Shown one piece after another: positions 158 to 32,372 of a stretch of DNA of 44,044 nt (its first letter is position 1; each line of letters opens with the position of its first letter). A model generated the notes under the pieces. It was not told where the DNA came from. It saw only the letters and a program-made list of their open reading frames with translations, and did not search any database. The stretch lies in IMG/VR virus record IMGVR_UViG_2718218453_000006. The stretch is one strand, 5' to 3'. The DNA comes from a virus (Duplodnaviria > Heunggongvirae > Uroviricota > Caudoviricetes). A program made the translations under genes and the position numbers.

Positions 158-433
158 TCACATATAACAAATCATAATGGCCTCTGTATGCATACACATT
201 ATATTTATTCTAACCTCTTCAAAATCTATGTATCTATGCTGACTTTGATCAATACTCTTCTTCGTTTTTTCAATAATATCATCGTAAACGGTTTCCATAT
301 AATATTTATCAGTAAATAGATCGAATACTTCATTAGCAGGCTTCGCAAGCACTTTCTTGGTAAAGCGAGAGTATTCTAACAATGCTGTAAGTTCTGCTGA
401 GTTCTGACTATTACATTTATTTTCTTTTTTCAT
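158..433 (-). CDS. hypothetical protein (91 aa) in the P4-type-integrase island
   Basis: ORF in AT-rich DNA downstream of the AlpA-like gene; no recognisable motif. Confidence 0.3.
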   Translation of the reverse strand: MKKENKCNSQNSAELTALLEYSRFTKKVLAKPANEVFDLFTDKYYMETVYDDIIEKTKKSIDQSQHRYIDFEEVRINIMCMHTEAIMICYM

Positions 434-555: not shown

Positions 556-858
556 TTATGCAGCTGTATTACGTGATGAATAGATCAGTTGTTCAATCCA
601 TTCATCAATCTCACTTTCAACAAAGGCACTGGCTCTTATTCCAATCTTAATCGGCTTAGGGAAATCCCCCTTACTAATAAGTCTATAGATCCATGCTTTG
701 CTAAATCCTGTTTTATTGATCACTTCCGGCATGCGAATAAGTTTTTTTGTTGTCATATATTTCTCCGTTGTTGTTTTGATGAATGTAGTATCTTCAGATC
801 GCTTATGACGTTCAACCCTCGGAAAATCAGAATTGAACTCGAATTGAGTGTTTTTCAT
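556..858 (-). CDS. AlpA-family (MerR-like HTH) regulator / excisionase-like protein; true start probably an internal Met (MTTKKLIRMPEV...)
   Basis: Motif ...LIRMPEV...GFSKAWIYRLISKGDFPKPIKIG... typical of AlpA/prophage CP4-57-type regulators; sits next to a P4-type integrase. Confidence 0.7.
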   Translation of the reverse strand: MKNTQFEFNSDFPRVERHKRSEDTTFIKTTTEKYMTTKKLIRMPEVINKTGFSKAWIYRLISKGDFPKPIKIGIRASAFVESEIDEWIEQLIYSSRNTAA

Positions 859-1082
859 ACAAAAACAGATGAAATGGCGGGAGAGCTGTCACTGGGCGGG
901 GTGTAGAGCGATTTAGCAATAAGTGCTATTTATTTTCCTGTTTCAAGGTATTTTATAATTTTCATATTAATCAATTAGTTAATAAACATCAGTTTAAATT
1001 CTGACTTAATTCTTATCTGCATTAGCCAAGAAAAAGGGCTATGGCCGTTAAGACATAACCCTTCTTTCATCAGCAGTTATCC

Positions 1083-2853: not shown

Positions 2854-3285
2854 ATGAAAAAATCACTCGTGCTAGTTATGTTTCTTTTCTCAGCTTGTGT
2901 TACTGCGAGTAATGACCTAGATCTATATGATAATCAAGGCAACGCCGTCGTTTATATTTCACTTGATGACGAGTTGACTTTATATAGTTGGGAGGGTGAA
3001 CCAAGCGCCTACCTTAAACATAACCAGAACAATGAGTTTGATGTTTATGGATTCAATGGGAATCATTTAGGCTGGTTTACTAATGGTATGTTGATTGATC
3101 ACGATGGCTATGTTGCCTGTGCAGTAAAAGACATGGTTACCACACCTAATTTGCCATCACTTAAATCACTTAAGAGCCTCAAGCCTCTAAAATCGCTAAC
3201 GGAACTTCCCCCTCTTTTCCCGCTGCTAAAAAATGCCTTTGGTCAGACAAATTGTTCTTTGTTAGTAGCTTCAGGTGTTGCATAA
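2854..3285 (+). CDS. putative secreted protein or lipoprotein with C-terminal SLK/PLK repeats (143 aa)
   Basis: N-terminal signal peptide with Cys (MKKSLVLVMFLFSAC), tandem peptide repeat PSLKSLKSLKPLKSL. Confidence 0.45.
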   Translation: MKKSLVLVMFLFSACVTASNDLDLYDNQGNAVVYISLDDELTLYSWEGEPSAYLKHNQNNEFDVYGFNGNHLGWFTNGMLIDHDGYVACAVKDMVTTPNLPSLKSLKSLKPLKSLTELPPLFPLLKNAFGQTNCSLLVASGVA

Positions 3286-3661
3286 ATCCACAACGGATGC
3301 ATTTCTTGAAAGGGATGCCCCTCCAGAGGATAAAATGCTTACGGTATCCGCTCCTGACACGGAGCGGACCAATCAGGTGGTTGTAAGGTCCGCTATGAGC
3401 AAGAAGCGGAAGTTGGCAGTTTTGTGGACTGTCCCCACAAAAGTGACTACAGAAATAGTTGCAATTCATAATTGATCATGGGTTGTCAGTTAAACTCGTG
3501 GCGATTTAAATAGACTAATTGGGAGTGCGTCCATTACTTATATCTTGTAATGTTAACTATCAGAAATGATACAAAGATAATATGTCTTTAAAGAAAAGAC
3601 TGATGGCGAAAAGTGGCCCGATGAGGGCCACTGATCCTACCCACGTAATATGGACACAGGC

Positions 3662-4528
3662 CTAAGCGAGGTTCTTGTTTTCAAATTGTTCCGGACTGAG
3701 GCCGCCACACCAACTGTGCCGCCGCCACCGATTGTAATCACATTCGATATAATTAAACACCGTTGCCCGCATTATTTCCCGGCTGATAAAGTGTTCTCCA
3801 TGGATACATTCCACTTTCAGCGAATGAAAGAAGCTTTCCACGCAGGCATTATCGTAGCAGCAACCTTTTGCGCTCATACTTCCACGCAGATTATGCCGCT
3901 TCAGTTGCGCCTGATAATCTGCTGAACAGTACTGGCCTCCACGGTCCGTGTGAACGATAACGTTCCGGGGCCTCGTACGCCGCCATAGCGCCATCTGCAG
4001 GGCATCGCAGGCCAGTTGCGCCGTCATGCGTGGCGACATTGACCAGCCAATAACGGCACGTGACCACAGGTCAATGACCACTGCCAGATACAGCCAGCCT
4101 TCATCTGTACGTAAGTACGTGATGTCTCCTGCCCACTTCTGGTTCGGGCCACTGGCGTAAAAATCCTGCTCCAACAGATTTTCTGACACAGGCAGGCCGT
4201 GTGCGCGGTAGCTGACCGGGCTGAACTTCCGGGAGGCCTTTGCCCTCAGTCCCTGACGGCGCAGGCTTGCCGCCACGGTTTTTACGTTAAAGGGGTAACC
4301 CTGAGCACGCAGTTCATCCGTCAGGCGTGGGGCACCGTAACGCTGTTTTGACCGGGTAAAAGCCGCGAGGACAACGCTGTCGCAGTGTTGGCGGAACTGC
4401 TGACGCGTGCTTATCCTTGTCCGCCGCTGACACCACGTATACCAGCCGCTGCGGGCCACCCGGAGCACGCGGCACATTGCTTTGATGCTGAACTCAGCCT
4501 GATGTTTTTCAATAAAGACATACTTCAT
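3662..4528 (-). CDS. insF: IS3 transposase OrfB (DDE integrase domain)
   Basis: 288-aa ORF matching IS3 OrfB as recalled from memory, with DDE catalytic region (HTDRGGQY...). Confidence 0.9.
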
Positions 4529-4833: not shown

Positions 4834-4906
4834 CTCTGACTGAGAGTTTACTCACTTAGCCGCGTGTCCACTATTGCTGGGTAAGATCACACAATACGGC
4901 TGTCAC

Positions 4907-5239
4907 TTAGACGTAAATATCAATGGTGCCAGCGGTATTTGTATCGTCTTTTTTCTCTTCTTTTTTATCAGGATGAACTGTCGCGTCTTCATTCTTTTTC
5001 TCTGCCTGCTGCCTTAACAACTGCTCCAGTTGAGCCCTGAGGCTTTCAATTTGCTTCTGTACCAATGCAGCCATTTCTTTTTTCTGCTGTGTCGTCATCC
5101 CCTCTTCCGATGAGATTTTCCCAAGCTTTTCAGTCAGCACCTGAATTTGTCTTGTGATTTTGGCTATTTCTGATGTTCCTTCCGGGGCGGAGTTGTTTGA
5201 AATAACGGTTGAGGTATTTCCCTGAATTGTGACAGACAT
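4907..5239 (-). CDS. flxA: FlxA-like protein (110 aa, coiled-coil)
   Basis: Sequence MSVTIQGNTSTVISNNSAPEGTSEIAKITRQ... recalled as E. coli FlxA; strong RBS (AGGAGA); preceded by a sigma-28-type promoter. Confidence 0.6.
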   Translation of the reverse strand: MSVTIQGNTSTVISNNSAPEGTSEIAKITRQIQVLTEKLGKISSEEGMTTQQKKEMAALVQKQIESLRAQLEQLLRQQAEKKNEDATVHPDKKEEKKDDTNTAGTIDIYV

Positions 5240-5289: not shown

Positions 5290-6034
5290 ATCGTATTTCT
5301 TGTGTCATTAATTGTTTGATGTTCAGATTGTTTTCCTCGCGGGCTGGCGCGCCTCAGAAAGTAAAGCTTGTTGACAGGGGTAAACGTTCGGCAATAATTT
5401 TCTGCCGCATGCGGGTGTTGCATAAAACGTGCTACGTTCCTTTATCGACAGGTCAGGTCACCGCTCACCCGCCGACGAGAAAGCAACACTGACATGCTAA
5501 AGCAAAAAATAGATGAATAAGTTGAGTTGTGCATATGTAGCCTGACCGTCACAAAGTATATGGTGTCTGTACCAGTAAGATGGTGGCCGGACTCTTTAAA
5601 AACGAGCTGACCTGCACAATACAGGATGGACTTAGCAATGGCTGCTCCTGGCACATAGCAGCCCTAGAGACAGTGGCGTAAAGTCATGGAGGGTCGGTGG
5701 CAGGAGATGCAAATCCTCTCATACAAAAATACGTAAAATCAATAACGGCTAGAAATCATTCAATACTCGCACTATCTAACATTTACCAGCCAACCGCAGC
5801 ACGTCTTGCATACGACCTGTCTGCGGTTTCAATCACCTCTCACCACCAGTCCCATCAATAATAATTAAACAGCGCCTAAACAAAATAAATAACAACAAGT
5901 CAACAACCTCGACAGGATGCCGATGGGATGATGAAGAGATAAGAAAGAATAACTAGTAAAGCCCTAAAACGTCAGCGTTCAGACGCGTTTTTTACTTAAC
6001 CGGTAACAAATACGTTGTATCATAGCAACATAAA

Positions 6035-7984
6035 ATGATTGTTCTAAATCAGATTAACTCCTCACTTTTGTACAATGTCGCTTACAGGTATACCATGAAA
6101 TCCGAGACGCTAACTGTCCAACAACTTTTTCAAGACCGCCGACAATACTGCGTTCCATTCTATCAACGTGCCTATGTATGGACTCAGCGAAACCAATGGT
6201 CAGCTCTACTGGAGGATATCCTAGAGAAAGCACAATCCCGGCTCTCGGGTACAAAACCAACTCCCCATTTCCTTGGTGCAGTGGTACTGGAACCTCAACC
6301 AAAAAAAGGATTATTAGGTGTAGATTCCATACATATTATTGATGGTCAGCAACGATTGACCACTCTTCAATATGTTCTGGCATCCATCCGATTAGCATTA
6401 CGTGCGACAGATCTTTCCAACTTAGGGCCTCTCATTTCGTCTTGCCTGAAAAACTCAAACGAAGACACAATGCGAAATAAAGAAGTAGAGCGCTTCAAAC
6501 TGTGGCCAACTTTTCGGGATCAAACTCATTTTATTCAAAGTTTTAATGTTGAAAATATTGACGATATCCGGAATGTATTCTCTGATAGTTTCACGCAGCA
6601 TGGTACGTTGCGTAAGCATTTTAATCACCCGCCATCACTAGAAGCATTATGTTTTTTTACTGAAGCCTTTATAAAGTGGATTAAAATAGAAAATCACTCA
6701 CCACGAGAAAATGCTGTAGCATTAATTGAGGCTGTCTTGACGGATCTGAAACTAGTAAGCATATTTCTCGAGGCTGAAGATGACGCTCAAATAATTTTTG
6801 AAACATTAAATGGCAGAGGTGCGGAACTTCATGCCACAGATCTTATTCGCAATTATATTTTTATGTGCGCTGAACATGAAAATATTAATGCTGTTGAATT
6901 ATATGAGAATGAGTGGAAGATCTTTGAAGATACGTACTGGTCAGAAAGACAACGTCGTGGTCGTATTAATAAACCACGCATGGAGTGGCTAGTGCATGCG
7001 ACATTGCAATCAGAAAGGCAACGTGAAATCGATCTGTCTCGTCTTTACAATGAGTATCGTGATTATGTAAGTAAGGACTTGCCTTCACAACGAGCAGATC
7101 TGCAAGTAAAGCGCCTCAAACAATATGCATCACAATATAAAGAATTGGTTGGTGGTTTTGGCACAACCCCCATCTCACACTTTGGACATCGCATCGCAGC
7201 CTATGATGTGACGACACTTTATCCGCTTGCTTTGTTCATTTCGATAGCTAACATCGCCGATGATGAGAAAGCAGCCATGTATAATGATCTTGTCTCCTAC
7301 GTAGTACGAAGAGCCGTATGTGGCCTGACGCCAAAGAATTACAACAATGTATTTATGAATGTATTGCGGCACTTGTCTAAAACGGAAATTTCCAGTGTTG
7401 AGTTACGTAATATCCTCAATAGCTTAAATGGCGAAGCCTCACGTTGGCCTGGGGACTCAGAATTTCTCAACGCTTGCATCAATGCTCCACTTTATCCTGG
7501 CAGGCTCGACGCACCGAAAATGCGCTCAATGTTAACGGAACTTGAAAGAGAACTTTGTCGCCAAGTGAAGACAGAGAAGCCTGATGTTCCAAATCTTTCT
7601 AACCTCGATATCGATCATCTTATGCCTCAAAGTTGGTATTCCTGTTGGCCTCTCGAAAATGGTCATATGGTGACAAATTCAGATGCTACGGTATTGAACC
7701 AAATTGTTCTGTCTGGAACCGATCTTACCCCTGAACAGCTACTGGTAAGGAAACGGCAACAAGCGATAGCTACGTTGGGAAATCTAACTTTGCTTAACCT
7801 TAGCGTAAACCGTTCTGTTCAGAATGCTGTATTTCTGAAAAAACGTGATGCTCTCATCGTCCACACCAATCTACGACTGAACATTCCACTTATAGTTAAG
7901 GATAAATGGGATGAGGATGAAATCCTGGAGCGGGGTAAAAAGTTGGGGGAAATTGCATTGAAAGTATGGCCAAAACACGATTAA
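6035..7984 (+). CDS. DUF262/DUF1524 fusion protein (GmrSD-like; candidate modification-dependent type IV restriction or defence nuclease); start may be the Met at 6095
   Basis: N-terminal ParB-like DUF262 motif (IIDGQQRLTTL); C-terminal His-Me/HNH-like DUF1524 motif (DIDHLMPQSW); 649 aa. Confidence 0.8.
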   Translation: MIVLNQINSSLLYNVAYRYTMKSETLTVQQLFQDRRQYCVPFYQRAYVWTQRNQWSALLEDILEKAQSRLSGTKPTPHFLGAVVLEPQPKKGLLGVDSIHIIDGQQRLTTLQYVLASIRLALRATDLSNLGPLISSCLKNSNEDTMRNKEVERFKLWPTFRDQTHFIQSFNVENIDDIRNVFSDSFTQHGTLRKHFNHPPSLEALCFFTEAFIKWIKIENHSPRENAVALIEAVLTDLKLVSIFLEAEDDAQIIFETLNGRGAELHATDLIRNYIFMCAEHENINAVELYENEWKIFEDTYWSERQRRGRINKPRMEWLVHATLQSERQREIDLSRLYNEYRDYVSKDLPSQRADLQVKRLKQYASQYKELVGGFGTTPISHFGHRIAAYDVTTLYPLALFISIANIADDEKAAMYNDLVSYVVRRAVCGLTPKNYNNVFMNVLRHLSKTEISSVELRNILNSLNGEASRWPGDSEFLNACINAPLYPGRLDAPKMRSMLTELERELCRQVKTEKPDVPNLSNLDIDHLMPQSWYSCWPLENGHMVTNSDATVLNQIVLSGTDLTPEQLLVRKRQQAIATLGNLTLLNLSVNRSVQNAVFLKKRDALIVHTNLRLNIPLIVKDKWDEDEILERGKKLGEIALKVWPKHD

Positions 7985-27336: not shown

Positions 27337-27687
27337 TCACTTCAACCGTTCACGGGCCGTCTTCGCCTTATGACACGGCCAGCACAGACTCTGCAGATTA
27401 CAGTCGGCATCAGTGCCGCCATGCGCTTTAGGGATGATGTGGTCAACGGTTTTCGCTTCACGCACCACACCGGCACGCAGACATAACTGACATAAACCTT
27501 TGTCACGTTTCAGTACACGTTCACGGATAGCATCCCATTTCGAACCGTAGCCGCGCTGATGACGGGATTGTCCTGGCTTGTATTGCTTCCAGCCTTCGCT
27601 TTTGTGGCTTTCGCAGTAGCCTGACGGGTCAGTAGTGGTATGGCGGCAGCCGCGAACGCGGCAGGATTTTGGGATTCGTGGTGGCAT
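27337..27687 (-). CDS. HNH endonuclease (packaging-associated)
   Basis: Cys-rich zinc-finger and HNH motif (DHIIPKAHGGTDADCNLQSLCWPCH). Confidence 0.85.
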   Translation of the reverse strand: MPPRIPKSCRVRGCRHTTTDPSGYCESHKSEGWKQYKPGQSRHQRGYGSKWDAIRERVLKRDKGLCQLCLRAGVVREAKTVDHIIPKAHGGTDADCNLQSLCWPCHKAKTARERLK

Positions 27688-27704
27688 TGAAGAAAACCCT
27701 TTGT

Positions 27705-27740
27705 AATAAGCATAAAAACCCCATATTGAATGGGGCTTGA
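27705..27740 (-). terminator. candidate rho-independent terminator after the AT-rich moron gene
   Basis: Minus-strand hairpin CCCCAT-n-ATGGGG followed by a T-run (tttttatgc). Confidence 0.5.
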
Positions 27741-27744
27741 TGAA

Positions 27745-28251
27745 TTACTGTCCTAAAGCACTTTTTGCCAATATTGAAGCAATTGAAGCAAACGTCGGAT
27801 TTTCCAATAGCTTTTGCCAAAGGCTTTTAACCTCTGGATCATTGCAATGCTCTATAGCATCATGTAGTTGTTGAATGGTTATATTCTTTGTGATCGAATT
27901 ATCATTACCGGCTTGAAAATCACCACCAGCATTAATAGCACCGTTAAACGTCAAATGGGTCGTAATCTGCTTCGGCTTCTCTTTTACATCCAATGCCTTC
28001 ACTATCAATACCGCCAAATGTGAGTAGCCAGGGCAACCAACCTCGAGACTAATTTGCACCTCGTAATCAAGCACTTCAAATAGTCTTTCCCTGTCGACCA
28101 TTTTTTGCACAATGATATCGCCGATATTAAATGGGCATAAGTCACTTTCAATAGGAATATACAATCGGCCTTTAGATGAGTCACGTTGACCATAATAGGT
28201 GGATGAATTAAAGGTAAAAGTATCTGGATAGAAAAATTGATCTGGTCTCAT
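27745..28251 (-). CDS. hypothetical protein (168 aa), AT-rich moron between lysis and packaging genes
   Basis: ORF in strongly AT-rich DNA, with about 200 bp AT-rich upstream spacer and its own downstream hairpin. Confidence 0.5.
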   Translation of the reverse strand: MRPDQFFYPDTFTFNSSTYYGQRDSSKGRLYIPIESDLCPFNIGDIIVQKMVDRERLFEVLDYEVQISLEVGCPGYSHLAVLIVKALDVKEKPKQITTHLTFNGAINAGGDFQAGNDNSITKNITIQQLHDAIEHCNDPEVKSLWQKLLENPTFASIASILAKSALGQ

Positions 28252-28455
28252 AATAGTCCCTTTTGTGTTTTGTGGATATCTCCATTAATTAGACTATTAC
28301 TTTATCTCTTTTCCCAAATACATACATTCAAAATTAAGAGCATTATCACAGATAATTTCGAAGCGATATTGCAATGCCTACCCATGACCTGTATTCAACG
28401 AATACGTATCAGAGGAATACCTTGTTCGTTATCTACATGACGATAAAAATATACA

Positions 28456-28704
28456 TCAATTTTGATTATCAATGATTCTGATATCTGACTTATCCCTATT
28501 ACATTGAGCCAACGCGGATAACAAACTTACATTCAAATCAAGACTTGCACCATACGTCAGTGGGTTGGGTATAAACGGTACAGGTGTATCAGAAGTCAAG
28601 CTGACTGGTAGTGGAGTCTTCGGAATGCTCACGTAAACTGTTCGCGTACTTCCGCAACCGGTCAGCAGCGGCAGCAGGCACAGGGCGTACAGCACAATCA
28701 TCAT
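28456..28704 (-). CDS. Rz1-like outer-membrane spanin lipoprotein (overlapping the 3' end of Rz)
   Basis: Internal start MMIVLYALCLLPLLTGC has a lipobox; proline-rich mature part; different frame overlapping Rz. Confidence 0.6.
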   Translation of the reverse strand: MMIVLYALCLLPLLTGCGSTRTVYVSIPKTPLPVSLTSDTPVPFIPNPLTYGASLDLNVSLLSALAQCNRDKSDIRIIDNQN

Positions 28705-28981
28705 CCGCAACAGCCACTTTGATATCAGCCTGGGTTCTCTGTGACTCCAGTGCGATCTGCTGTTTTGCATGCTGGTTAGCCTCCAGAACTGTATTGACGA
28801 TTTGCAGTGATTGCAGGACGTTATTGGTAATAGCGGTTGCCGATTCGGCATTTTGTACAGCCTCATCAGCACGTTTCTTTTCGCGCTGGTATTTGCTGTG
28901 GTAGTGGTTAGCTGACCAGACGAGAGAACCGAATAAAGTCAGGAGGAAAGCAGAAATAACCAGCTTATAGCGAAGTTTCAT
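28589..28981 (-). CDS. Rz-like inner-membrane spanin
   Basis: N-terminal TM (LVISAFLLTLFGSLVW) then coiled-coil; immediately after the endolysin gene. Confidence 0.65.
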   Translation of the reverse strand: MKLRYKLVISAFLLTLFGSLVWSANHYHSKYQREKKRADEAVQNAESATAITNNVLQSLQIVNTVLEANQHAKQQIALESQRTQADIKVAVADDDCAVRPVPAAAADRLRKYANSLREHSEDSTTSQLDF

Positions 28982-29441
28982 TAACCACCCCGCCAGCTTC
29001 TTTGAATTTGGCAATCAGACTATCGATCTTGTGTTCATACTGACCGTAGCCAGCACCGGGCAATGAAGCCCAAATATTGCTGCAACGGTCGATTGCCTGA
29101 CGAATATTGCCACGGTCAATCATCGGTAAAGCGCCACGCTCTTTAATCTGCTGCAGAGCTACAGCGTCCTGGCTTTCTGGAGAAAAATCTTTCAGGCCAA
29201 GCTGTTTACGGTAAGCATCCCACCAGCGTGAAAGAAGCTGGTAACGTCCGGCGGCTGTTGACTTGAGTTTCGGGTTTAGCGTGACAAGTTTGCGAGGGTG
29301 ATCGGAGTAATCAGTGAAGAGTTCACCACCGACAATAACGTCATAACCGTGGTTACGTGTCGGTTGTCGTCCGTTATCCGTTCCTTCTGACCAAGCCACC
29401 ATATCAAGGAAAGCTTTACGCTGGGAATTTAGTACCTGCAT
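28965..29441 (-). CDS. endolysin (lambda R-like lytic transglycosylase)
   Basis: 158-aa ORF closely matching lambda R as recalled from memory (QRKAFLDM.AWSEGTDNGRQ.TRNHGYDVIVGGELFTDYSDHPRK). Confidence 0.9.
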   Translation of the reverse strand: MQVLNSQRKAFLDMVAWSEGTDNGRQPTRNHGYDVIVGGELFTDYSDHPRKLVTLNPKLKSTAAGRYQLLSRWWDAYRKQLGLKDFSPESQDAVALQQIKERGALPMIDRGNIRQAIDRCSNIWASLPGAGYGQYEHKIDSLIAKFKEAGGVVNETSL

Positions 29442-29444
29442 AAA

Positions 29445-29876
29445 TTACTCCTTAGAGCCACCAAATTTGTTACCGATTACTCGCATTGCAGCCCCACGAA
29501 TAGCATCGACACCGATCAGCCCCACGCCACCACCAATGGCAACAGAAAGCGATTTAGGCCATCCGACATACTCAAGAGCGGATGCAAAGGTCAGCGTCAG
29601 AGCGCCACAGAGCAAAATCTCGAGCGTTTTTCGCTTCCAGCCACCACCACCGCCAAAATAGGCGATGCGCAAACCAGCCATAACGATCGACATAATCACT
29701 GCCCCCAGCGGTGTGTCTCCACGCCACCAGCTCTGAAACAACTCCAGCCAGTCCGGCCAGGTATTTGGGTTATGAGGCATTTCGTCATCTCTCACCTCGC
29801 GATATTTGCGGGTGCTGTGTTGGAAATAAAAAGGCCACGCAACGTGGCCACCAGAATTATTTCCCCACCAGTTCAC
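29445..29876 (-). CDS. putative holin (three predicted TM segments); real start may be an internal Met near 29780
   Basis: Hydrophobic segments and position immediately upstream of the endolysin. Confidence 0.55.
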   Translation of the reverse strand: MNWWGNNSGGHVAWPFYFQHSTRKYREVRDDEMPHNPNTWPDWLELFQSWWRGDTPLGAVIMSIVMAGLRIAYFGGGGGWKRKTLEILLCGALTLTFASALEYVGWPKSLSVAIGGGVGLIGVDAIRGAAMRVIGNKFGGSKE

Positions 29877-29916: not shown

Positions 29917-30231
29917 TTAAACACCTAACGCCCGACGCCCCAGCGCCATTGCTGCTTTTATTGTGGAACCGAATCCCATAAAGAAATCAGCAACCAGATC
30001 ACCAGGTCGACTACTGGCATTGATTATTTGCCTGAGCATATCCGCCGGTTTCTCGCACGGATGTTTACCCGGGTAGAACTGAACGGGCTTATGCGTCCTG
30101 ACATCGGTATAAGGCACGGAGACTGATACGGAGAAATAGCGCCGGTGAGATTTAAACTCATCCAGCAATTCAGACGATTTGCAATTCAGTGAATCATGAG
30201 ATACCACCAACTGGTGGTAGGATTGTCTCAA
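29917..30231 (-). pseudogene. fragment of a beta-class N4/N6 DNA methyltransferase (C-terminal motif I region only)
   Basis: HPCEKP...GDLVADFFMGFGSTIKAAMALGRRALG matches the AdoMet-binding DPFxGSGTT region; no DPPY catalytic motif and only 104 aa. Confidence 0.6.
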
Positions 30232-30401
30232 CTAGTGAGCTTTATACATTTAAGTGCGATGCACAGATAATAACCACGCCAATGGAATATCACACACAAA
30301 ATTGATAGAACACTAACAATAAGCCACAAAATAATTCACAATTTATTTTTACAGTGGATAAGTAGCAAAGTAGTGAATGTGAATAACGGCTAACTAAGAT
30401 G

Positions 30402-30430
30402 AAACAAAAAGCCCCACAATATGTGGGGCT
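30402..30430 (-). terminator. rho-independent terminator after the Q-proximal moron pair
   Basis: Minus-strand hairpin GCCCCAC-atatt-GTGGGGC followed by TTTTTGTTT. Confidence 0.6.
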
Positions 30431-30488
30431 CCTTCGCGATTTATAGTAAAATAATCGATTCTCTAGCTGAAAAAATCTTTAAAAATTA

Positions 30489-30722
30489 TCAGCAATACGC
30501 AAGTTTTTTACCGTCATCCGGTACTAGTTTGATCACTACACCAGGATTCTTACGCTCTAACATCTGAGTTTGACTCCATGTAATACCAAAGGTTTCCATT
30601 GGAGATGCATTGCCAGCAAAGAGTTCGGCGACGACTTTAGCTGCCTCAATCTCTATCTGCTCATGATGTTTCATAAAAATCCCCTTGTTCAGCACTAAGC
30701 TGTAGTTGCTTCTTTGAAGCAT
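30489..30722 (-). CDS. small hypothetical protein (61-77 aa)
   Basis: ORF between the 180-aa moron gene and a terminator. Confidence 0.4.
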   Translation of the reverse strand: MLQRSNYSLVLNKGIFMKHHEQIEIEAAKVVAELFAGNASPMETFGITWSQTQMLERKNPGVVIKLVPDDGKKLAYC

Positions 30723-30865
30723 AAAGGCAACAAAGTTTGTTACCTGAAGATGTATAAAGTAAAGCGTAGTACATTTTGTGTGTGCTTTGTGTGGATCCAG
30801 ATTGCATCAACTAAAAGAGGTTTTCAATACTTTTGTAATGATTCTGGAGAAATTAAGAATCTAAC

Positions 30866-31408
30866 TCACACTGATTGGTTAGGTAAAACGCTCCTAAGCA
30901 CCATTGCGCAACCACCTCGTTCGTAATCAGCAATGTACTCAAAACCACTTTCAGTATAGTATCTTATTGCCCCATCAACTGGACTAACTAAAGCTATCGA
31001 ATCAATAGATTCACCCTGAAGGTTCAGAAATCGTGCATATGCAGAGAAGCAATCCAAAACGATACCAAGCATCTGATGGTCTAGGTCTTCATGTGCATCA
31101 TTACGTTTTTCCATCCAGCAAATATGCACCGCATTTTTCGGCTTACAGTAACACCCAAATGCAAATCCAATAGGCTCCCCACGATAATAAACAACTAGTT
31201 TTATCGGGTGTTCTTCCATCATATCCATAAACACTCGCGACTTTAGTCCGGGATCCCACCGCAGTTTATTGTTAGCCTTGAGGAACTCCATATCTTTTAG
31301 TACCAGCTCGTCGGCATATACGAGCCCTAACGACTTATGAGGGAAGCGCCCTTTTAAATACTCTGCAACATTTTTAAATACTGCTGTTTGGAAGGCTTGA
31401 AACATCAT
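30866..31408 (-). CDS. hypothetical protein (180 aa), weak acetyltransferase-like C-terminal signature
   Basis: AT-rich ORF immediately downstream of the late terminator; C-terminal ...AIRYYTESGFEYI resembles a GNAT-type tail (low confidence). Confidence 0.45.
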   Translation of the reverse strand: MMFQAFQTAVFKNVAEYLKGRFPHKSLGLVYADELVLKDMEFLKANNKLRWDPGLKSRVFMDMMEEHPIKLVVYYRGEPIGFAFGCYCKPKNAVHICWMEKRNDAHEDLDHQMLGIVLDCFSAYARFLNLQGESIDSIALVSPVDGAIRYYTESGFEYIADYERGGCAMVLRSVLPNQSV

Positions 31409-31484
31409 GTCGATCCAGACGAGACGAAAGTTTAAATTCTACCTACTCGCCGAATACCATTTCAATGCCACACATCTAAAATTC

Positions 31485-31512
31485 CGAAAAAAAACCCGCA
31501 CATCAGCGGGTT
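31485..31512 (-). terminator. late-operon terminator (tR'-like) downstream of the late promoter
   Basis: Minus-strand hairpin CCCGCTGATGTGCGGG followed by T8. Confidence 0.65.
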
Positions 31513-31557
31513 TTCTACTTTTTATTAAAGCCGGACACACAATGCCTATCATTGAGA

Positions 31558-31590
31558 AAATATTATCCATTTTTTTTGAAAAATGCAAGC
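31558..31590 (-). promoter_or_regulatory. late promoter (pR'-like) immediately downstream of Q
   Basis: Minus-strand TTGCAT-17 bp-TAATAT about 50 nt upstream of the terminator hairpin. Confidence 0.55.
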
Positions 31591-31619
31591 ATCATGTCGC
31601 CATTTTCGTCGAAAATCAT

Positions 31620-32372
31620 TCATCTCGTCACTTTCCTCAATTGTGTCTCAGCATACGCTTCTTCCTGCCAGCACTTTGTAACCAGTTTATCAATGACATC
31701 TGCATATCCTTTGTACCACTGATAATCCGTCAGGTCTGGTACCAGCTTCTGGACATGAAGCCGCGCCAGTGTGGTTGGTAAACGGCTAAACCGGTTTCCA
31801 TTGCAACGCCCACAAACCTTATAAACAGGCGTGCCATGAAGCCTGGTTCTTTTTTCATCCAGGACAATACCTTTACCCTTACACCCTCTGCACGCTGTGC
31901 TGACTTCTCCCTTACCATGACAATGCTGACACAGTTCCTTCACCCACTCTTCCTTGATAACAGATTCCCCGCTTCTGGAGTGTTTCACCACCTCGCGCAA
32001 TACATCATGAAATCCAGTACCAGCACAATGCTCACAGCGAGCCTTACTTGCCGCAGACCTGGAATAATCAGCAAAGGCAAAATTCACAAGGTAAGGAATG
32101 ATCTGTAGCCGGGTTTCTTCACTCAATTTGTTCAATGTCGGGTTATCCAGTGCCATCGCGTAATTGAGCAGACCTTCAATCGCAAACTGAGGATCCTGAA
32201 CACCAACTTTTGCCAGGAATAAGGCAAACCCAAGCGGTGCTTTCGACTGCACCATCCCCTGCGCAGCCATTACATCTGTAATTGTTAAACCACCAGAGCC
32301 TGTCGCCGGTGCGTCATCGCTCAATTTTGGAGATTTTGGGGAGTAATATTTCGGTAAGGCTTCAAGGTTCAT
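31620..32372 (-). CDS. Q-like late antitermination protein (250 aa)
   Basis: Cys-rich zinc-binding motifs (CEHCAGTG, CQHCHGKG, CRGCKGKG, CGRCNG); position before the late promoter/terminator and lysis genes. Confidence 0.75.
   Translation of the reverse strand: MNLEALPKYYSPKSPKLSDDAPATGSGGLTITDVMAAQGMVQSKAPLGFALFLAKVGVQDPQFAIEGLLNYAMALDNPTLNKLSEETRLQIIPYLVNFAFADYSRSAASKARCEHCAGTGFHDVLREVVKHSRSGESVIKEEWVKELCQHCHGKGEVSTACRGCKGKGIVLDEKRTRLHGTPVYKVCGRCNGNRFSRLPTTLARLHVQKLVPDLTDYQWYKGYADVIDKLVTKCWQEEAYAETQLRKVTR

Follow-up and report, generated by a model that had tools for sequence, protein, structure and literature searches.

The insert and its position

The stretch of DNA analysed here (44,044 nt, hereafter the window; IMG/VR record IMGVR_UViG_2718218453_000006) is an SfV-like prophage integrated at tRNA-Thr/proA. 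Exactly between the stop codon of the spanin gene Rz1 and the start codon of an HNH endonuclease gene it contains a single 768-bp insert, formed by an AT-rich spacer, an open reading frame (ORF) encoding 168 amino acids (aa), and a terminator-like hairpin (Table 1). A first-pass annotation had described this segment as a horizontally acquired moron with independent expression, interrupting the transition from lysis to packaging genes, and had recognised no function in it. Its three parts, the AT-rich ORF, the AT-rich spacer of about 200 bp and the hairpin, are indeed all present on the minus strand. Here, coordinates refer to the whole window; the genes around the insert are all on the minus strand, and their order is given 5' to 3' on that strand. 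The gene assignments match the annotation of phage vB_EcoM-689R6, which is 99.9% identical, and of an identical E. coli prophage.

In SfV and phage 720R4, approximately 26 bp separate the stop codon of Rz1 from the start of HNH, there being no insert, and this arrangement represents the empty site. In the window, the similarity to all relatives ends exactly at the HNH ATG (27687/27688) and resumes within the 3' end of Rz1, at approximately 28470-28497. Thus, the 768 bp are an insert, and the ORF does interrupt the lysis-to-packaging transition. The hairpin is missing at the empty SfV junction as well. The same slot holds 291 bp without a gene in SfIV, an unrelated protein of 106 aa (phrog_2483) in SKA5, accompanied by a GC-rich hairpin and a T-run of its own, and an unrelated protein of 184 aa (phrog_6169) in Salmonella phage 118970_sal3. 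Of 5426 complete genomes of E. coli, 28 contain the cassette, all copies being at the identical position, whereas the adjacent HNH gene, counted when at least 80% of its length was covered, is found in 1053. Hence the ORF is not a core gene: it is lacking in approximately 97% of the HNH-bearing E. coli genomes, as well as in SfV, SfIV, SfI and 720R4.

The comparison of composition, for which 19 late-operon genes served as the reference, also sets the ORF apart from its neighbours. Its GC content is 0.389, and that at third codon positions (GC3) is 0.349, versus means of 0.551 (standard deviation 0.029) and 0.591 (standard deviation 0.061), respectively, which corresponds to z = -5.7 for GC and z = -4.0 for GC3. 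The spacer occurs among phage records only ever together with the ORF; a search for riboswitches and small RNAs with Rfam gave no match in it, and its coding strand has no small ORFs of at least 60 aa. The hairpin starts 6 nt past the ORF stop codon and folds with -15.8 kcal/mol (z = -4.8), none of 200 shuffled sequences folding equally well.

We conclude that the insert is a 768-bp mobile cargo cassette at a recurrent lysis/packaging-junction hotspot of the SfV-like prophage. Its horizontal acquisition is well supported by the foreign composition, the empty sites, the slot with varying cargo, and the presence in 28 genomes versus 1053, and it very probably is an accessory cassette of the moron type. 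Morons as such are a known kind of feature, the concept reportedly going back to Juhala, Hendrix and colleagues and to HK97/HK022. Similarly to phage morons, the cassette is an extra gene of foreign composition, with its own terminator, between genes that are adjacent in relatives, and its slot, located in a late region of a temperate phage, has cargo that varies among relatives; the difference is that for the window copy no promoter of its own, a defining trait of morons, could be demonstrated.

Table 1. Features of the cassette and of the adjacent genes, in window coordinates
Feature	Coordinates	Strand	Basis or remark
Q-type antiterminator gene	31620..32372		
Holin	29876..29445	-	gene order in the window
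Endolysin	29441..28965	-	gene order in the window
Rz	29014..28589	-	Rz1 embedded
Rz1 (o-spanin) stop codon, upstream edge of the insert	28456..28458	-	sequence reading; end of PGAP lysC/Rz1 in the identical E. coli prophage
AT-rich non-coding spacer	28252..28455	-	204 bp, GC 0.324; accompanies the ORF
Candidate extended -10-like element TGTGATAAT	28350..28342	-	in the spacer; spotted by eye, without statistical support
Shine-Dalgarno-like AAGGGA	28262..28257	-	inside the spacer, 5 nt 5' of the ORF start
ORF of 168 aa, ATG start	28251..27745	-	full-length member of phrog_5789; NCBI WP_021519683.1, 'hypothetical protein'
N-terminal six-stranded beta-barrel, residues 1-88	27988..28251	-	AlphaFold2 model
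RHIM-like unstructured segment LTFNGAINAGGDFQAGNDNSITK, residues 100-122	27886..27954	-	coil in the model; RHIM evidence at the family level
Motif core FQAGNDN of the window protein	27918..27898	-	within residues 100-122
Three C-terminal helices, residues 126-167	27751..27876	-	pLDDT 92-96
Ala/Ser/Gly-rich tail PTFASIASILAKSALG, last of the three helices (152-167)	within 27751..27876	-	model and sequence
Intrinsic-terminator-like hairpin AAGCCCCATTCAATATGGGGTTT then TTATGCTTAT	27716..27738	-	9-bp stem, 5-nt loop, T-run
HNH endonuclease start codon, downstream edge of the insert	27685..27687	-	homology to SfV, SfIV, SKA5 and 720R4 starts exactly there
HNH endonuclease	27687..27337	-	TerS and TerL further downstream

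The protein, its family and its genomic contexts

The ORF encodes a real protein under purifying selection. The window protein matches phrog_5789 over its full length (E = 1e-79), the PHROG being annotated as 'function unknown', and full-length homologues with 49-73% identity are found in E. coli, Serratia and metagenomes. In comparisons with six homologues, the proportion of synonymous differences (pS) was 0.77-0.92, and that of non-synonymous differences (pN), 0.23-0.38; selection is stated as pS and pN and not as a ratio of substitution rates (dN/dS), since the synonymous sites are saturated. Near-identical cassettes differ by 8 synonymous versus 4 non-synonymous changes.

The AlphaFold2 model, computed from a 70-sequence alignment, has a mean predicted local distance difference test score (pLDDT) of 88 and consists of three parts. 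The barrel (residues ~1-88, pLDDT 95-98) is followed by a coil (residues ~90-122), which is the sole low-confidence region (pLDDT 60-71), and then by helices at residues 126-134, 139-150 and 152-167. The terminal helix is rich in small residues and hydrophobic or amphipathic. The barrel superposes on phage head-closure, stopper and head-tail adaptor proteins (8vhx_F, 2kz4_A, 9lbn_J) at 2.2-2.6 A over 69-78 residues. Judged by fold, position in the head-tail module and conservation among relatives taken together, the protein does not qualify as a phage head-closure/stopper (neck) protein; a recent duplication of the head-closure gene of the same prophage was rejected as well, since the two show no sequence similarity (E 0.095 in a single comparison). 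PilZ domains bind c-di-GMP through the motifs RxxxR and (D/N)xSxxG. Both motifs are missing here, no match to the PilZ hidden Markov model was obtained, and membership in that family was rejected.

Searches of Pfam, NCBIfam, PADLOC and, by sequence, PDB with the window protein yielded nothing significant, and in PADLOC-DB v2.0.0 no match was found either for the window protein (E<=10) or for ten diverse relatives (E<=1). The statement that no function is recognisable thus holds for curated libraries, but not for the protein as such, as structure prediction and family analysis revealed a three-part fold and a modular architecture with a RHIM-like motif in the family.

When 1.84 billion representative proteins were searched exhaustively with a profile, 80 clusters were obtained, many of which match profile positions ~90-167 only. 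This C-terminal module is composed of (F/I)NIGS(I/V)(S/T)G.QVQ(V/I)GN.N.Q, then NIT(I/L)QELVEKVAKS.DPEAKSLLKKLLEN, and then a tail, TVASI(V/I)GAGASALLGLL. When the 88 module-bearing proteins with an N-terminal region of at least 60 aa were grouped by similarity of that region, 13 groups were obtained, the largest being the barrel of the window type (63 of 88); among the remaining groups are a Zn-ribbon and several domains of a helical or winged-helix-like kind. Hence a constant C-terminal module has been joined in evolution to at least 13 different groups of N-terminal domains. A constant C-terminus with swappable N-termini would be the layout expected of a sensor-plus-effector protein. Matches in genomes come from Pluralibacter, Kluyvera, Photorhabdus, Pseudomonas and other Gammaproteobacteria, and from one Fibrobacter metagenome-assembled genome.

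Two unusual forms were also seen. In several cases the module is seemingly alone, as 58-74 aa starting from the VQVG core (L034 / L060 6031-6207 (+); proteins P0081, P0082 and P0074); these loci come from Photorhabdus temperata and a viral contig, and the ORFs could be truncations, products of mis-called starts, or free-standing modules. Conversely, the giant proteins P0025 (4708 aa) and P0096 (1793 aa) match the barrel profile (~4-62) in 13 and 5 stretches, respectively, which suggests that the barrel, or a part of it, may also be repeated in tandem within very large proteins.

The gene occurs in several distinct contexts. In seven independent phage lineages (the window, L006, L027, L028, L064, L066 and L067), it follows the holin, endolysin and spanin genes on the same strand, often with the HNH and terminase genes downstream. 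In other loci it is a lone gene on the opposite strand, situated between terminase and portal (L069), between tail/SLT genes and primase in Serratia (L004), or, in L030, flanked by two large genes on the minus strand (508 and 553 aa), which by analogy with L069 are presumably terminase and portal. More distant members lie between the major-capsid and DNA-primase genes, on viral contigs of ~16 kb and on a Kluyvera chromosome (L033, L042, L061); in L042, PHROGs confirmed portal, head protease, major head protein and primase. One more copy (L007) adjoins a KilA-N + BstA_C (BstA-type) gene at the end of a prophage. In nearly every locus the gene is AT-rich compared to its surroundings (GC 0.32-0.44 vs 0.50-0.58). 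We conclude that it behaves as a mobile cargo gene that moves between phage and satellite hotspots.

Canonical members were observed at the capsid/primase junction too, again lone and on the opposite strand, in L033 and L038-L062, that is, in approximately 25 viral contigs of 14-19 kb and the Kluyvera chromosome. These small elements encoding portal, protease and capsid presumably resemble the capsid-forming satellites of the phage-inducible chromosomal island (PICI) type, and their capsid/primase junction may be a hotspot of accessory genes. The post-lysis region of L067 contains additionally an Acb2/Tad1-hairpin (anti-CBASS/Thoeris sponge-like) gene, 4882-5163 (+), and a GnsAB-toxin-like gene. 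Thus, the lysis/packaging junction collects both defence and counter-defence genes.

The RHIM-like segment

The RHIM/PP/BASS3 class of amyloid motifs is defined by a central G-phi-Q-phi-G, where phi denotes a hydrophobic position; BASS3 motifs form amyloids and prions and have been reported from Bell/NLR gene pairs of filamentous Actinobacteria and Cyanobacteria, where they are located at the termini of the proteins (Dyrka et al., 10.1101/2020.01.06.895854). According to a 2026 review, RHIM-like bacterial motifs are still confined to filamentous bacteria (PMC13506858). In E. coli, the prophage-hotspot pair Bab/Agp, which carries the BASS11 motif, is an abortive-infection (Abi) system, in which amyloid is templated onto a membrane-targeting helical domain (Ibarlosa et al., 10.1101/2024.11.07.622273).

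In the family considered here, 70 diverse members were compared, and conservation reaches at least 90% at the positions that correspond to Q113, G115 and N118 of the window protein; phi-Q-phi-G is present in 63 of the members, and in 61 it is followed by N within 1-2 residues. When each of the 70 members was scanned singly against Pfam, RHIM (PF12721) was by a wide margin the most frequent match (12 members at E<=1). Protein P0098 reached 24.9 bits, exceeding the curated cutoff of 20, and seven further members scored 10-17 bits at the aligned position; sub-threshold matches to the HET-S motif model were obtained in two members. In the opposite direction, a motif-only profile (A5, 28 columns) was compared with 177,635 distinct PDB sequences, and its two best matches were the fibril-core peptides of the RIPK1 RHIM, 8ib0 and 9m6m (E-values 0.0064 and 0.0069), aligned over ...GIQIGNHNYM.... 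Thus, the similarity to authentic RHIM cores is reciprocal, at the family level only. The motif lies in the sole non-confident coil, between two confidently folded parts.

The likeness to the RHIM/PP/BASS3 class hence consists of the Q-x-G core with flanking Asn and hydrophobic phi positions, of matches in both directions between family members and the RHIM models or RIPK1 fibril cores, and of the location of an unstructured segment beside a helical domain with a hydrophobic terminal helix. The hosts are different, being unicellular Gammaproteobacteria with their phages and satellites rather than filamentous Actinobacteria or Cyanobacteria. With Bab/Agp (E. coli ECOR25), the cassette shares the status of E. 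coli prophage-hotspot cargo and a small protein in which a short putative amyloid motif is combined with a small helical domain whose terminal helix is hydrophobic. Bab/Agp, however, comprises two genes, a sensor and an effector sharing the motif, whereas here there is one; the motif there is C-terminal and the hydrophobic helix of the Bell domain N-terminal, whereas in the present protein the motif comes before the helices, the hydrophobic one of which is at the C-terminus; and the Bab/Agp motif belongs to another class. Given the reversed order and the lack of a partner, the protein is not a Bab/Agp-type (Bell + BASS) system. By its motif and layout, the family would seem to work like the described RHIM/BASS3 gene-pair systems without being a member of them.

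A single module gene was found in 58 of 59 loci, the exception being the viral contig L028, where two module genes with different N-termini, 3623-4114 (-) and 6001-6504 (+), flank the lysis cassette. These two are not a sensor/effector pair, as both proteins carry the full module. The motif of the second gene, NFNFNGGPANVQVGNHNKIEI, is very close to the RIPK1 core, and L028 could serve as a natural pair for comparison of co-assembly.

Possible function and expression

We consider the following explanation to be the best one overall, with a probability of roughly 0.4: the cassette carries a putative single-chain phage-conflict effector with a RHIM-like switch, most likely an abortive-infection or superinfection-exclusion factor, expressed from the prophage in a lysogen or from a satellite. 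The variable N-terminal domain, in this case a barrel with a fold similar to that of phage neck proteins, would be a sensor binding the trigger; the RHIM-like segment would act as a cooperative self-assembly switch of the amyloid type; and the C-terminal helices with the tail would engage the inner membrane, so that the infected cell would be killed or arrested. In the lysogen, the terminator would keep cassette transcripts out of the HNH and terminase genes, while Q-antiterminated late transcription would read through it. As regards the parts of this explanation, a role in phage-host or phage-phage conflict has slightly better than even odds, and an assembly switch driven by the RHIM-like motif is a tentative and rather doubtful element.

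In favour of the explanation as a whole are the cassette status, the mobility between hotspots, the joining of the C-terminal module to 13 N-terminal groups, the RHIM-like motif and its location in the only coil between folded parts. There is also precedent: another AT-rich cargo gene of the same prophage encodes a GmrSD type IV restriction enzyme (see below), and the BASS3 amyloids and the Bab/Agp Abi system are known. More broadly, temperate phages of unicellular Gammaproteobacteria, as well as their capsid-encoding satellites, might share an undescribed family of single-chain effectors of cell death or exclusion, with swappable sensors, an internal RHIM-like switch and a constant membrane-active module, which we consider unlikely; such a family would be an all-in-one counterpart, in reversed order, of the two-gene NLR/Bell and Bab/Agp systems.

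If the cassette is expressed independently, it should have its own promoter and terminator. The terminator half of the original claim held, the hairpin being real; for the promoter half, no sigma-70 site rose above the background. A Q-antiterminated transcript, as in lambdoid late transcription, would pass through such a terminator. As it would ignore the hairpin, the latter would be useful mainly for transcripts initiated in the cassette. Homologues that are lone genes against the strand of all their neighbours must, for that reason, have a promoter of their own. Thus, a terminator that came in with the cassette and the opposite-strand homologues would indirectly favour independent expression. 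A shared promoter was sought in 12 diverse upstream regions, where no site exceeded the shuffle background, and in most upstream regions of 11 diverse homologues the best site of the position weight matrix (PWM) likewise was no better than in shuffles. The element TGTGATAAT in the window is only a candidate promoter, for which the PWM scan gives no support over that background.

A number of observations weigh against the effector with a RHIM-like switch. The sigma-70 consensus scan of the coding strand of the spacer found no site, in the PWM scan of the spacer 97% of shuffles equalled or exceeded the best site, and, as the gene is co-oriented with the late operon, the window copy may possibly be expressed by late read-through. 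The strict five-residue signature G-phi-Q-phi-G is present in just 2 of the 70 members, the upstream Gly being displaced in the family (G-x-Q-phi-Q-phi-G), and most members are below the curated RHIM threshold. The window copy reads G-D-F-Q-A-G-N-D-N, which is degenerate, and did not match the Pfam RHIM model at E<=10, remaining below its gathering score; evidence for its motif comes by homology with canonical relatives and not directly. The whole-module profile (A3), when compared with PDB, retrieved no RIPK chains. Unlike the BASS3 motifs, this one is internal (residues ~100-122), not terminal, and no adjacent NLR-type partner shares it: in the six-frame translation of the 44-kb window the motif occurs once. 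The tail of the window protein has a mean hydropathy of 1.10 versus 1.72 in canonical relatives, for example TVGSLIGAGASALLGLL. The significance of the proposal is tempered accordingly: its functional statements are all computational, and the window copy is a degenerate member.

The failure of the window copy in the RHIM model, the rarity of the strict signature, the scores below the curated threshold and the lack of RIPK chains among the matches of the whole-module profile would also be expected if the cassette were accessory cargo with a function unrelated to amyloid assembly, for instance a membrane-associated lysogenic-conversion or fitness factor, or a toxin acting by another route. The phi-Q-phi-G-N-x-N segment would then be merely a loop or strand that is conserved and resembles RHIM by convergence; the low-complexity composition of the motif also agrees with this. 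On the other hand, such convergence does not readily explain why RHIM is the most frequent Pfam match and RIPK1 cores are the top two PDB matches of the motif profile, or why conservation in the whole family is highest at Q, G and N though these are located in the only unstructured part of the model, which is unusual for a passive linker. We regard unrelated cargo as unlikely, yet far from negligible.

If, instead, the gene served counter-defence or another late phage function, for example as a RHIM-like decoy that co-assembles with an amyloid-type immune switch of the host and blocks it, it would be expressed either late, as part of the Q-dependent transcript, or early, from a promoter of its own. 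Viral RHIM decoys are documented, herpesvirus RHIM proteins being known to block necroptosis (PMC13506858), as is an amyloid-based Abi system of E. coli (10.1101/2024.11.07.622273). The position directly downstream of the lysis genes, on the same strand, in seven lineages, the lack of a detectable own promoter, and the presence of the Acb2/Tad1-like gene at the hotspot in L067 agree with such a role. Nevertheless, a strong terminator, missing at the empty site, would be pointless for a purely late-operon gene; many copies are lone, on the opposite strand and within structural or replication modules; and some are in satellite-like elements, which have no need for such counter-defence. In addition, the known E. 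coli motif (BASS11) is of a different class, and a decoy would require neither exchangeable N-terminal domains nor a conserved C-terminal module of helices with a hydrophobic tail. We regard this role as unlikely.

A very unlikely alternative is a function within the flanking modules, either accessory to virion morphogenesis, as a paralogue of neck or head-closure proteins, or in regulating the timing of lysis, given the absence from most HNH-bearing E. coli genomes and from SfV, SfIV, SfI and 720R4, the foreign composition, the dissimilarity to the head-closure protein of the prophage, the copies in non-structural contexts, such as the one that adjoins BstA at the end of a prophage, and the same C-terminal module on Zn-ribbon and helical N-termini. 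Finally, the notion of a spurious ORF in AT-rich junk DNA, with which the lack of a curated family match would agree, is effectively refuted by the purifying selection seen in the pS and pN data, with synonymous sites saturated and non-synonymous ones constrained, and has a negligible probability also in view of the full-length homologues, the family of ~80 representative clusters and the confident AlphaFold2 model.

Returning to the single-chain effector with a RHIM-like switch, we note that the searchable literature mentions neither this protein nor its PHROG, and that it reports no RHIM-like motif from proteins of phages or prophages. In that literature, bacterial motifs of the RHIM-like kind come exclusively from paired genes in filamentous Actinobacteria and Cyanobacteria, and amyloid signalling in bacterial defence has been shown by experiment for one system only, that of two E. 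coli genes, whose motif is different. If the proposal is true, it would provide a compact single-gene (~168 aa) E. coli model of an amyloid-type assembly switch, in which the naturally swapped sensor domains would help to map triggers, and it would assign a function to phrog_5789. RHIM-type signalling would be extended to enterobacterial mobile elements, which would bear on whether immune signalling of this type is ancient or convergent, and the lysis/packaging junction and the satellite capsid-primase junction would be flagged as places to look for new conflict genes.

Several other AT-rich segments were observed in the window. A 649-aa AT-rich ORF at 6035-7984 (+), GC 0.415, adjoins the tail-fibre genes and matches GmrSD_N (E 5e-34) and GmrSD_C (E 5e-20), being thus a second, recognisably defensive cargo gene, from the type IV restriction enzyme family. 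Upstream of the holin, at 29917-30231 (-), there is a C-terminal remnant of a DNA methyltransferase, annotated by PGAP as a pseudogene without the N-terminus; the SfV gene is full. The AT-rich stretch between this remnant and the Q gene contains ORFs of 180 aa (30866-31408) and 77 aa (30489-30722), neither with a Pfam match, and the region 29917-31600 (-) looks like a second insertion, which truncated the methylase. Of the small AT-rich ORFs at the left end (GC 0.31-0.39), 158-433 (-) and 589-906 (+) have no Pfam match, and 2854-3285 (+) encodes a '4-fold beta flower' protein (Bflower, PF21784).

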